Part shown: positions 961 through 3,263 of the stretch, in pieces
Numbering within the stretch: position 1 is the stretch's first letter
Layout: each line of letters opens with the position of its first letter
Virus record (IMG/VR): IMGVR_UViG_3300036846_001176
Coordinates: 29,048-93,047 of that record
Direction: 5' to 3' (one strand)
Length of the DNA stretch: 64,000 bases
Origin: a virus
Made by a program: the position numbers and the translations under genes
The notes under the pieces: model-generated
What the model was told of the DNA's origin: nothing
Database searches by the model: none
The model's input: only the letters and a program-made list of their open reading frames with translations

Positions 961-992
961 GGGGCGCAGCCGGTGAACCGTTGCTGCGCCCC
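961..992. terminator. GC-rich hairpin between convergent ORF1 and the pentamer array
   Basis: ggggcgcagc (961-970) pairs with gctgcgcccc (983-992); inner cggt/accg stem. Confidence 0.7.
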
Positions 993-999
993 TCAGGCT

Positions 1000-1910
1000 A
1001 TGCCGGCCGGGCCGTGCCTCGGCGTGCCTTGCCCTGCCTCGCCACGCCTGCCGTGCCTAGACGAGCCTTGCCCAGCCATGCCCTGCCTGCCGTGCCCCGC
1101 CGCGCCGAGCGTTGCCCTGCGCTGCCGTGCCGAGCCTGCCGTGCCGAGCCACGCGAGGCCCGGACGCGCCGTGCCTCGCCACGCCTGCCATGCCTCGACC
1201 TGCCGCGCGGAGCCATGCCGTGCCACGCGATGCCGAGCCTGCCGGGCCCTGCCTCGCGCGGCCGCGCCGCGCCATGTCGCGCCAAGCCATGCCGAGCCTG
1301 CCTTGCCCTGACATGCCCTGCCGAGCCGGGCCTGGACTTGCCACGCCTGCCAAGCCGCGCCTTGGCGTGACGCGCCCAGCCTTGCCATGCCCGCCGTGCC
1401 CAGCCATGCCGCGTCGTGCCGGGCCATGCGATGCCGCGCCTAGCCTGCCGTGCCAAGCCAGGCCGGGACACGCCCGACCACGACCTGCCATGCGCTGACA
1501 TGCCTGCCGCGCCGGGCCACGCCTCGCCACGCCGGAACGGGCCATGCCATGGCGCGCCATGCCTGCCCCGCCTTGCCGAGCCCTGCCGTGCCTAGCGGCG
1601 CCGAGCCCCGCCCCGCCTGGCCTGCCTTGCCGAGCCGTGCCACGCCGTGCGTTGCCGAGCCATGACCTGCCAAGCCTCGCCTGCCGTGACGGGACTTGCC
1701 TTGACCTGCCACGCCTCGCCACGCCTGCCGAGCCGTGCCACGCCATGCCCTGACGAGCCGTGCGTTGCCATGCCTGCCGAGCCACGCCGAGACGTGCCTT
1801 GGCTTGTCTCGCCATGACGCGCCTCGTCGTGCCTGCCAAGCCATGCCCTGCCAGGCCTTACCGCGACTGGGGAGGCCATGCCGTGCCACGCCTGCCAAGG
1901 TGCACCTGCC
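1000..1910 (-). ncRNA. GGC-NN pentamer guide array (VIPR-like), 17 units of 39-59 nt
   Basis: Plus strand parses as NN-GCC pentamers (variant triplets gac, gcg, gtc, ggc, acc, aac, ggg). 4-nt gcc-t-gcc delimiters at 1046, 1085, 1134, 1183, 1237, 1296, 1345, 1443, 1502, 1561, 1620, 1679, 1723, 1772, 1831, 1890 and variants at 1002, 1389; all spacings are 5n+4. Directly downstream of RAMP-like operon. Confidence 0.9.
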
Positions 1911-1911
1911 A

Positions 1912-2418
1912 TCAAGCCGGCGCAGGTGCGTGCTCTGCCCCGCCCGGTGGCATGCGCCGTTGGCGAGGTGGGGTAATACGGGCCGCAGCCGCCCGCTTCC
2001 GACGTGGACGGACAGCGTCCGCCGCACGCCAGACCTGGGCCAGCTCCTCCAGGAGCTGGTACTTGCGCTTGAGCCGCTCGAGTTCTTGCAGCGCGTCATC
2101 CATCATGACCTCCCGCAGGCTGCGGGTGGCAACCACGGTGGTGGTCTCGCGGTAGCCGCCGCCGTTGGCCCGATCCACCGTAAGCGAAATGAATTCGTGC
2201 GTGCCACTGGCGACGATGATGTGCATGCTGATTAGCTGCCGCGCCTGCCACAGCCGGTGCTCATGGGCGGCAATGCTGTCGTCCCACTGAAACCGGCTGT
2301 GCAGCCCCGACTTCGGATGACGCTGCGCCCACTCCACCACCGGCTCGGCGTGGATCAGACCCTTGTCATCCTTCAGACGGAGCAGTTCGGCACGGATCTG
2401 CCGTCGTGTCGCGGGCAT
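1912..2418 (-). CDS. Accessory protein coupled to the RAMP-like gene (168 aa)
   Basis: ATG at 2418 overlaps the TGA of the upstream gene; motif LHSRFQWDDSIAAHEHRLWQARQLI; stop abuts the array. Confidence 0.75.
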   Translation of the reverse strand: MPATRRQIRAELLRLKDDKGLIHAEPVVEWAQRHPKSGLHSRFQWDDSIAAHEHRLWQARQLISMHIIVASGTHEFISLTVDRANGGGYRETTTVVATRSLREVMMDDALQELERLKRKYQLLEELAQVWRAADAVRPRRKRAAAARITPPRQRRMPPGGAEHAPAPA

Positions 2419-3263
2419 CAGTCGGCAATCCGGAAGCGGCCCCAATCACGGCCGTTCGACTTGGGCGAGTTCGGCCGCCCCTCGCCGATGCCGACCTGCA
2501 GCCCGGCCCGGAGCATGAGGTTGCCGATGTCGGTAGGGTTGTACTGATCCGCATCCCAGGTCACCCTGACCACGGCGCGCCACTGGGTCCACATCGGCCG
2601 CCACCGGATGTCGGCGCCGCCGTAGGGGTTGCGCACCGGGCCTTTGTGCGGGGCGGGATCGCCGAGGATCCTGACCAGCGGCGTCATGTCCTCAGGGTCG
2701 TAGCCGTCGGCTTCGACGAAAATCGACAATTTCGCGTGTTGCATTGTTACGCCGACGAGACGGCAGGCATCGATCATGGCCGAGCGAAATGCTGGCGCCG
2801 GAATGCCGAGCCAGCCTTCCGCCGAGCGGTGCATGGCGCTCTTGTAGTTTTCATCGAAGTCCTTCGGCTTGCGCACCTTCTTGCCGCGCGCCTGCTGGCC
2901 GGCACGTTGGGTGTCCTCGATGATCCCCTGCGCCTTTTGGGTGAACTTGTTCTGCACGTAAGGCGTCACGCCAACGACGGTGATGGAGGCGGTGGTCAGG
3001 TTCGGCGGCTTGATGGCCACCTTCTGCTGCTTGCCGCCCACCAGCAGAGCGGCCATTTCGCCCTGATTGAGCGGCGGGATCTTCACCTTCGCCACCCGGC
3101 CGCGGCCGCGACGCTCCGGCTCGGCTGGCGCGCGGGTGACCTTGGGTGGCCGCCCCCGGCGGCGCGGTGCCGGATCCGGCAGGGCGAGTTTTCCGACGAG
3201 GATCGTCGGCTCCACACTGCCGTTGCCGCGGCCGCGTTTCGTCGTTTTGGTCTCGAGCAGCAT
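2418..3263 (-). CDS. vipr: Cas7/RAMP-like RNA-binding protein (Vipr-like, 281 aa)
   Basis: AAGGA RBS before ATG 3263; N-terminal strand ITVVGVTPYVQ, central GIPAPAFRSAMIDACR, C-terminal glycine-rich loop GLQVGIGEGRP...DWGRF typical of RAMP/Cas7-group folds; adjacent to GGC-NN array; symbol from memory of VIPR systems. Confidence 0.8.
   Translation of the reverse strand: MLLETKTTKRGRGNGSVEPTILVGKLALPDPAPRRRGRPPKVTRAPAEPERRGRGRVAKVKIPPLNQGEMAALLVGGKQQKVAIKPPNLTTASITVVGVTPYVQNKFTQKAQGIIEDTQRAGQQARGKKVRKPKDFDENYKSAMHRSAEGWLGIPAPAFRSAMIDACRLVGVTMQHAKLSIFVEADGYDPEDMTPLVRILGDPAPHKGPVRNPYGGADIRWRPMWTQWRAVVRVTWDADQYNPTDIGNLMLRAGLQVGIGEGRPNSPKSNGRDWGRFRIAD

Follow-up and report, generated by a model that had tools for sequence, protein, structure and literature searches.

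A probable VIPR system with a staggered array of 17 guides in a soil phage, and guides that match CBASS effector genes

The window analysed here is a stretch of 64,000 nucleotides from a soil phage, IMG/VR virus record IMGVR_UViG_3300036846_001176, which is complete at 104,559 bp. It covers positions 29048-93047 of that record (G000 hereafter), and all coordinates are window positions unless another prefix is given. At one end of the window, on the minus strand, a leftward string of genes (orf82, a gam-like gene, orf160, vipr and vap) runs into a tract of about 910 nucleotides built of GGC-NN pentamers, and the tract ends at a hairpin (Table 1). We describe this locus as a candidate VIPR (Viral Interference Programmable Repeat) system, a CRISPR-like means of RNA-guided DNA silencing that was first described in 2026 (10.64898/2026.04.26.720920, 10.64898/2026.04.26.720927). 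The leftward gene set, the tract and the closing hairpin are all present on this strand as the original prediction, made from the sequence alone, had reported them. The coupled 168-amino-acid gene that it described is confirmed as well: the vap ATG overlaps the vipr TGA (TGATG), and the two genes are translationally coupled. No cas gene and no nuclease domain was recognised in the open reading frames (ORFs) neighbouring vipr by Pfam and PHROGs scans, in agreement with the earlier remark that cas1, cas2 and nucleases are missing nearby; the lack of a recognisable nuclease also fits the earlier expectation of silencing rather than cutting.

Sequence searches with Vipr returned nothing from Pfam, nothing from the PDB and only an unnamed PHROG, and its sequence family of 1923 homologs is mostly metagenomic, with no named member; only the comparison of folds was informative. 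An AlphaFold2 (AF2) model built on 40 homologs reached a predicted local distance difference test score (pLDDT) of 78 overall, with most of the core (residues 85-281) above 85. When this model was compared to the PDB with Foldseek, all 36 matches at E <= 0.001 were CRISPR RAMP subunits (among them Csm3, Cmr and type VII Cas7), and VIA-align placed residues 85-281 at Z 10.9-9 to Cmr/Csm3 subunits. The protein thus has the Cas7/Csm3-type RAMP fold that had been predicted for it. Its best five AlphaFold DB clusters were A0A0F9A1L0, X1U2U4, A0A661D0E2, A0A1F4YLN4 and A0A2D6XG06, with E values from 1.5e-14 to 1.4e-6 and a TM score, normalised by hit, of up to 0.78. The same five accessions are the founding non-CRISPR RAMPs of the Vipr family (bioRxiv 10.64898/2026.04.26.720920). 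This model-based comparison, in which the nearest structural neighbours are the founding Vipr proteins, supports membership of the 281-amino-acid protein in the Vipr family.

Similar to Csm3, Cmr4 and type VII Cas7, Vipr has an RNA recognition motif (RRM) core, a glycine-rich loop and a thumb; those subunits assemble along the guide RNA at a constant spacing, each flipping out bases. Sequence identity between Vipr and the class 1 CRISPR backbone subunits is 8-15%. Within the C-terminal glycine loop (GIGEGRP...DWGRF), W274, G275 and F277 are invariant or nearly so among the 40 homologs, and the loop resembles the D-W-R G-loop contacts that hold guanines in the Vipr of Escherichia phage SUSP1, which together with a Pseudomonas fulva prophage represents the known type II VIPR (10.64898/2026.04.26.720920, 10.64898/2026.04.26.720927, 10.64898/2026.10.15.759431). 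In contrast to the founding Vipr proteins, which have about 180 amino acids, this Vipr carries an N-terminal extension: residues 1-85 (window 3009-3263) are disordered and basic, with an AT-hook-like RRRGRPPK and an RGRGR run. An extension with an AT-hook-like motif is found in a subset of the homologs, and most are without it.

To place the locus in its family, we used 80 IMG/VR loci encoding Vipr homologs of 43-66% identity. In 76 of the 80, the next gene after vipr is a vap homolog in the same orientation. Runs of at least four GGYNN units occur on the vipr strand in 78 loci, mostly just downstream of the gene, and the opposite strand, which served as an internal control, is almost without such runs. 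The association of the protein with flanking arrays, on which the original prediction had staked itself, therefore holds far beyond this phage. The AF2 model of Vap had a pLDDT of 88 and gave weak matches to winged-helix proteins (Foldseek E >= 0.2, VIA-align Z 5-6.3), from which Vap probably consists of a winged-helix-like N-terminal domain followed by long helices. This weak likeness agrees with the DNA-binding Vap proteins described in the VIPR preprint (10.64898/2026.04.26.720920). Strain variants of the phage from two other soil samples (runs X2 and X3) differ from it by about 30 substitutions in the 3' half of vap (window 1903-2144).

The grammar of the tract is regular. Of its 181 pentamers, 141 are exactly GGC-NN and 143 have GGY. 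Entropy is 0.35, 0.79 and 0.12 bits at pentamer positions 1 to 3, as against 1.76 and 1.96 bits at positions 4 and 5, and GGCNNGGC occurs 91 times (in 1000 shuffles, 3.4 times on average and 11 at most). That three positions stay constant while two vary freely is the opposite of what a slippage microsatellite would show, as had been argued. The entropy contrast bears out the earlier description of a fixed GGC and a variable NN, but about one fifth of the triplets are degenerate (GTC 17, CGC 11, GAC 4, GCC 4), and to this extent GGC is less fixed than was claimed. The description of the array as strictly phased has to be given up: the frame slips by -1 at all 16 junctions, which are spaced 39-69 nucleotides apart, through a 4-nucleotide GGCA (GGCG in one case), and these slips leave 17 units. 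GGCAG is the last pentamer of every guide but one, which has GGCGG, and the final G of this pentamer doubles as the first G of the next guide. The same grammar is found in 77 related loci with 543 guides, where the modal length is 10 pentamers, nearly all shifts are -1, and the last pentamer is GGCAG in 367 guides and CGCAG in 57. In soil runs X2 and X3 the array is nearly identical save for one deletion of 10 nucleotides (two pentamers) at window 1407; across the three soil runs in which the phage is present, all of them DNA, it is about 99% conserved.

The array matched no ribozyme or other Rfam family and no Rfam CRISPR repeat family. There is no conserved tail between the 17 guides, and a conserved hairpin stands at the ends of arrays and solo guides only. 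Guides without a tail of their own exclude a type II layout but not VIPR as such, and they fit a staggered architecture. According to the legend of fig. S18 of one preprint, adjacent guides in "staggered vrRNA arrays" overlap by 1 nucleotide, so that the end of one guide is the start of the next; the legend also mentions individually processed vrRNAs (10.64898/2026.04.26.720920). The -1 shift at each GGCAG/GGC junction matches this legend and, as far as the legend defines the layout, the array is a staggered one.

The hairpin that closes the array carries the apical element CAACGGTTCACCGG. We found this element on four unrelated, perfectly paired stems (window 961-992, G000 20560 and 22660 on the plus strand, and L002:6498); in this genome it stands at the close of three arrays or solo guides, and the nearest relative phage, G406, has one copy. 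Because the stems differ wholly and yet always pair, they provide covariation evidence for a structured RNA tail. The CAACGGTTCACCGG motif is present in just 4 of the 80 loci, and the hairpin has the look of a structured tail for vrRNAs that only this phage and its nearest relative possess. Judged by its sequence, the copy at 961-992 is probably both terminator and structured tail.

The fold, the founding Vipr proteins as nearest neighbours, the array on the same strand, the vipr-vap pair and three guides that match genes under the skip code (see below) all support the reading of 961-3263 as the VIPR system of a ~104-kb soil phage, composed of Vipr, Vap and a staggered array of 17 vrRNAs. We estimate the probability of this reading at about 92%. 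In other VIPR types, each pentamer is occupied by one Vipr protomer, which clamps GGY and holds NN out; on double-stranded DNA the filament builds a gapped R-loop triplex, and it represses transcription (10.64898/2026.04.26.720920, 10.64898/2026.04.26.720927). The earlier proposal that each subunit holds one GGC and presents NN has thus been shown, by a cryo-EM preprint, for those other systems. If RNA binding, filament formation and silencing can be carried over from them, the gene string would be transcribed leftward and Vipr protomers would polymerise on the array transcript, one per pentamer, clamping GGC and exposing NN. At the 4-nucleotide GGCA junction that follows every 8-12 pentamers, one filament or guide would stop and the next begin; the junctions may delimit separate guides by cleavage or by filament breaks. 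A filament of 8-12 protomers would then recognise double-stranded DNA through NN-x-NN-x and block transcription of the bound gene.

In the published VIPR code, NN pairs bind double-stranded DNA with one skipped base, usually the codon wobble (10.64898/2026.04.26.720920, 10.64898/2026.04.26.720927). An NN-x-NN-x code puts the skipped base on codon wobble positions, and guides would be written against the amino-acid-determining positions of conserved motifs. Guide 8 is the clearest case. Read in antisense as NN-x, it spells the serine nucleophile elbow of the patatin-like phospholipase of CBASS (cyclic oligonucleotide-based antiphage signalling system). We compared its 22 specified bases to one-genome-per-species bacterial contigs and obtained at least 120 exact 22/22 matches, against ~0.1 expected by base composition. 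We examined 80 of these, and each reads in frame as LIAGTSTGGIIAIGL within an ORF of ~340 amino acids. Ten of ten target ORFs compared to PADLOC were CBASS effector phospholipases (with E values of 1e-94 to 1e-102 for nine and 5e-46 for the tenth), and five of five compared to Pfam were Patatin. Neighbouring ORFs were scanned at seven loci: in five of them a CD-NTase cyclase adjoins the target, and in two there is an E2-like gene. Among 61 genomes of one alphaproteobacterial family, two match with at most one mismatch and none matches the backward control. The CT expected opposite the constant terminal AG of guide 8 is present in only 2 of 80 targets; this AG is thus left unpaired, and the terminal pentamer is structural.

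None of the other 77 phage arrays carries a guide to the patatin serine motif. An independent VIPR phage, L003 (IMGVR_UViG_3300032770_000022), whose Vipr is 63% identical to that of our phage, has a last guide that reads a different catalytic motif of the same effectors, the DGG catalytic-aspartate motif. Among the guide 8 matches listed, this guide matches 84 of 120 CBASS loci at 13-14 of 14 bases, mostly in frame and ~426 nucleotides downstream of the serine motif, where the DGG motif of patatin-type enzymes is expected; reversed and swapped controls gave 19 and 10 matches in total over ~560 guides. The phage described here also has a small ORF with an Acb2/Tad1 hairpin domain (Table 1), whose product, going by the domain match, is probably a cyclic-oligonucleotide sponge against CBASS or Thoeris. 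Such a sponge points independently to pressure from cyclic-nucleotide defences. The VIPR papers examined make no mention of CBASS, patatin or counter-defence targets. The matches of guide 8 and of the L003 guide suggest that the VIPR guides of phages may be turned on host defences and not on rival viruses alone. It is tempting to speculate, at somewhat less than even odds, that VIPR is also a programmable counter-defence: the two guides would silence the CBASS patatin effector gene, a host or island defence, through two catalytic motifs, and together with the sponge would make up a two-layer anti-CBASS strategy.

Two other guides of the array have recognisable targets. The eight exact 22/22 matches of guide 7 in metagenome contigs are all in frame, and five of the six target ORFs scanned match Pfam MT-A70, two of the five being ParB_N fusions; in contig L226 the target gene adjoins a tyrosine integrase. 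Of the 17 guides, the nearest relative phage has only guide 7, in which 21 of 22 NN bases agree; its retention there suggests that selection keeps it. When up to three mismatches were allowed in 401 alphaproteobacterial genomes, 9 matches were found compared to ~20 for the backward control and so no enrichment, although four of the nine are DPPW methylase motifs; exact targets came from metagenomes alone. Guide 2 matches the vipr of the relative at 20 of 22 bases (G406:26430), in frame, where controls reached at most 15 of 22. Under the code, the DPPW motif in MT-A70 methyltransferase genes of integrated elements would be the target of guide 7, and the vipr gene of sister phages that of guide 2.

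Matches of this kind are not trivial, since the full-length patterns of six guides (6, 7, 9, 10, 13 and 14) had no exact match in IMG/VR. Set against the phage's own genome, the guides scored no higher under skip 1 than under the skip-0 and skip-2 controls, with the exception of guide 2 on vipr; counted with the terminal pentamer, the best of the skip-1 self matches reached 65-75%, which these controls equalled. The guides of G406 gave nothing above controls when compared to this phage.

The genome holds about 33 guides: the 17 of the array and one solo guide in the window, and at least 15 outside it, in a second staggered array and four solo loci. Several of the guide loci outside the window have promoter-like sites and terminator hairpins. 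The solo guide in the window matches a DUF2460-like tail gene at 16 of 18 bases in G406 and at 15 of 18 in the phage's own copy; the first value is barely above the second, and an attack on the relative with self-avoidance is not established by it. The exact pattern of this guide has one match in IMG/VR, in a 14-codon frame, which is probably chance. When the 16 extra guides of the genome were compared to all the loci collected, nothing exceeded controls.

Table 1. Features of the VIPR locus, guides with readable motifs and related features elsewhere (positions without prefix are window positions).
Feature	Position	Strand	Description
vipr	2418-3263	-	281 amino acids; single-RRM RAMP (Cas7-like); AF2 fold, Foldseek, VIA-align, AFDB clusters
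vap-like gene	1912-2418	-	168 amino acids; 3' of vipr; phrog_15946, function unknown
Staggered vrRNA array	984-1896	-	17 guides of 8-12 GGC-NN pentamers each
3' tail hairpin	961-992	-	10-bp GC stem with apical element CAACGGTTCACCGG; closes array
Guide 2	1833-1892	-	sense reads V-T-M-L-H-A-K-L-S-I-F; matches vipr of closest relative phage
Guide 7	1564-1622	-	antisense reads P-F-[D/E]-L-V-Y-A-D-P-P-W; catalytic motif IV of MT-A70 DNA methyltransferases
Guide 8	1504-1564	-	antisense NN-x reads A-G-T-S-T-G-G-I-I-A-I; serine nucleophile elbow of CBASS patatin-like phospholipase
Promoter-like site	4639-4666	-	TTGACT-16-CATAGT; upstream of leftward gene string; consensus match only
Acb2/Tad1-hairpin ORF	11219-11455	+	78 amino acids; PF24729 at 30.3 bits (cut-off 27); phrog_1454
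Solo vrRNA gene	58324-58451	-	TTGACC-17-TAGTAA promoter-like site; 10 pentamers to GGCAG (58367-58416); 12-bp hairpin
Second staggered array	G000 20060-20545	+	10 guides; outside window
Four solo loci	G000 ~2278-2288 (+), 22552-22641 (+), 23012-23067 (+), 100323-100377 (-)		five guides; outside window
L003 last guide	L003:5358-5397		reads [D/E]GG[I/M][W/C]A[K/N]; DGG catalytic-aspartate motif of CBASS patatin effectors

Upstream of the gene string, the promoter-like site of Table 1 is the sole sigma-70-like match within 850-4700, and its position suggests that it could drive the whole leftward string, including the array. Two genes 5' of vipr lies a Mu Gam-like/Siphovirus Gp157 DNA-end-protection gene (3780-4349, minus strand). 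Among the 80 loci, this gam-like gene is conserved close to vipr in the nearest relative only, and gam-like, orf160 and orf82 do not otherwise travel with vipr. When 25 kb of the window was compared to GenBank phages by Megablast, no match was returned. The phage genome has no integrase and no resolvase, and the phage therefore looks virulent.

Other explanations can be weighed against these observations. One could suppose that the tract is a slippage microsatellite, or a region coding for a repeat protein such as the 260-amino-acid ORF at 1057-1839, beside an unrelated RAMP-like gene, given that both strands of the tract contain long ORFs, in several reading frames. We consider this extremely improbable: a 5-nucleotide period is unable to keep a reading frame, three fixed and two free positions are the reverse of slippage, in 78 of 80 loci such tracts accompany vipr and keep to its strand, and the NN series spell exact protein motifs of other genes only under the NN-x code. 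A different doubt concerns the number of functional guides. The array may not be cut into 17 guides at all, and could act as one long RNA with filament breaks at the junctions, or as a few functional units among decaying duplicates. Tandem Repeats Finder reports higher-order repeats of 49-98 nucleotides with 68-81% identity, which indicate duplication, and the ~20% of degenerate triplets, the targets found for a few guides only, and an array in which no ribozyme or other known RNA family was recognised and whose units are not separated by a conserved tail are all in keeping with such a view. It nevertheless seems unlikely to us, as 424 of the 543 guides from 77 phages keep the GGCAG/CGCAG-type junction, the fig. 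S18 legend speaks of individually processed vrRNAs, and the solo gene at 58324-58451 is a self-standing single unit that ends in GGCAG.

The system may also be VIPR but with another purpose for guide 8, namely to target a rival mobile element, be it a prophage, a satellite or an island, that carries CBASS as cargo, with the effector motif as a mutation-proof handle; this would be inter-element competition of the kind already published. CBASS operons are often found on mobile islands, published VIPR targets are satellites and prophages, the guide 7 target lies beside an integrase on an integrated element and the guide 2 target is in a rival phage. Furthermore, a phage without an integrase would gain little by shutting down, at a late point, the gene of an effector that is produced constitutively. 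Against this stand the Acb2/Tad1-like sponge, which points to direct pressure from cyclic-nucleotide defences, and the choice of motifs: guide 8 reads the catalytic centre of the effector, and L003 targets the other catalytic motif rather than a backbone gene of an element. We regard competition between elements as a possible but less than probable account of guide 8. For the locus as a whole we retain the reading as a VIPR system with a staggered array of 17 vrRNAs, and for guide 8 the tentative counter-defence reading.

Several points weigh against this interpretation. Of the 17 array guides, just three could be given a target, and the solo guide an approximate one. At the homologous site of the phage's own vipr, guide 2 agrees at 18 of 22 bases (82%) with the constant terminal unit left out, which is near the 80% at which the VIPR preprint places its threshold for a target match (10.64898/2026.04.26.720920). 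The fold assignment of Vap, which comes from a model, is weak. All three soil runs that contain the phage are DNA and none is RNA, and the small-RNA sequencing of the preprint confirmed hammerhead and single-guide architectures, not staggered arrays (10.64898/2026.04.26.720920). Any benefit to the phage from silencing the CBASS effector would depend on a host with a matching CBASS and on timing: in a virulent-looking phage, the gene may be silenced only after its product is in place, too late to prevent CBASS.

How does this locus compare to known systems? Like the type II VIPR of SUSP1 and the P. fulva prophage, it is a phage-borne vipr-vap pair with solo guide genes elsewhere in the genome, it uses a wobble-aligned NN-x code, and its guides are directed at catalytic or otherwise conserved motifs and at rival vipr genes. 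Guide lengths are similar, with 9-16 GGY-NN pentamers in type II and 8-12 here. However, SUSP1 has four guides of ~100 nucleotides, each with a pseudoknotted tail, whereas the 17 guides here are head-to-tail with a 1-nucleotide overlap, tailless between units, and followed by a structured tail, a different hairpin, at the array end only. Further differences from type II are the 281-amino-acid Vipr with its AT-hook-like extension, the at least 33 guides in the genome and the putative guide against a host immune effector (CBASS). Compared to class 1 CRISPR, no CRISPR repeats, cas1/cas2, Cas5, Cas6 or large subunit were recognised here, and the period is 5 nucleotides with 2 pairing bases rather than 6 with 5. 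We also considered a CRISPR-Cas identity for the locus, which would call for a repeat-spacer array with repeats of ~24-48 nucleotides and for the adaptation genes cas1/cas2, and rejected it, as the array period is 5 nucleotides and not 60-79, and no cas genes were recognised in the flanking ORFs.

The end that guide 8 would serve, disabling CBASS, is also that of the Acb1 nuclease and the Acb2/Tad1 sponges, but these act on the cyclic-nucleotide signal, while guide 8 would act on the effector gene through RNA-guided DNA binding. Vibrio phage ICP1 carries a complete type I-F CRISPR-Cas against the PLE island, acquires spacers and degrades DNA. Both are phage-borne RNA-guided systems against a host-resident anti-phage element; unlike that of ICP1, the system here is a nuclease-free two-gene VIPR with a gapped code.

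A VIPR system as such is already known in kind, and arrays have been catalogued at scale, with 667 representative systems and the 99 array clusters of 10.64898/2026.10.21.760802; the new part is the targets of the guides. The locus belongs to a clade, that of staggered arrays in high-GC soil phages, which the 2026 preprints only sketch. With 17 tandem and at least 16 further guides, a GGCAG/GGC junction conserved across 77 phages and a covarying tail, it makes the reading and cutting of staggered arrays directly testable. If the CBASS guides work, VIPR would be the first RNA-guided phage weapon against a host immune effector gene. If this is true, the wobble-skipping code would explain how one guide can cover a defence gene family across phyla, and the host would be unable to escape the guide by synonymous change.

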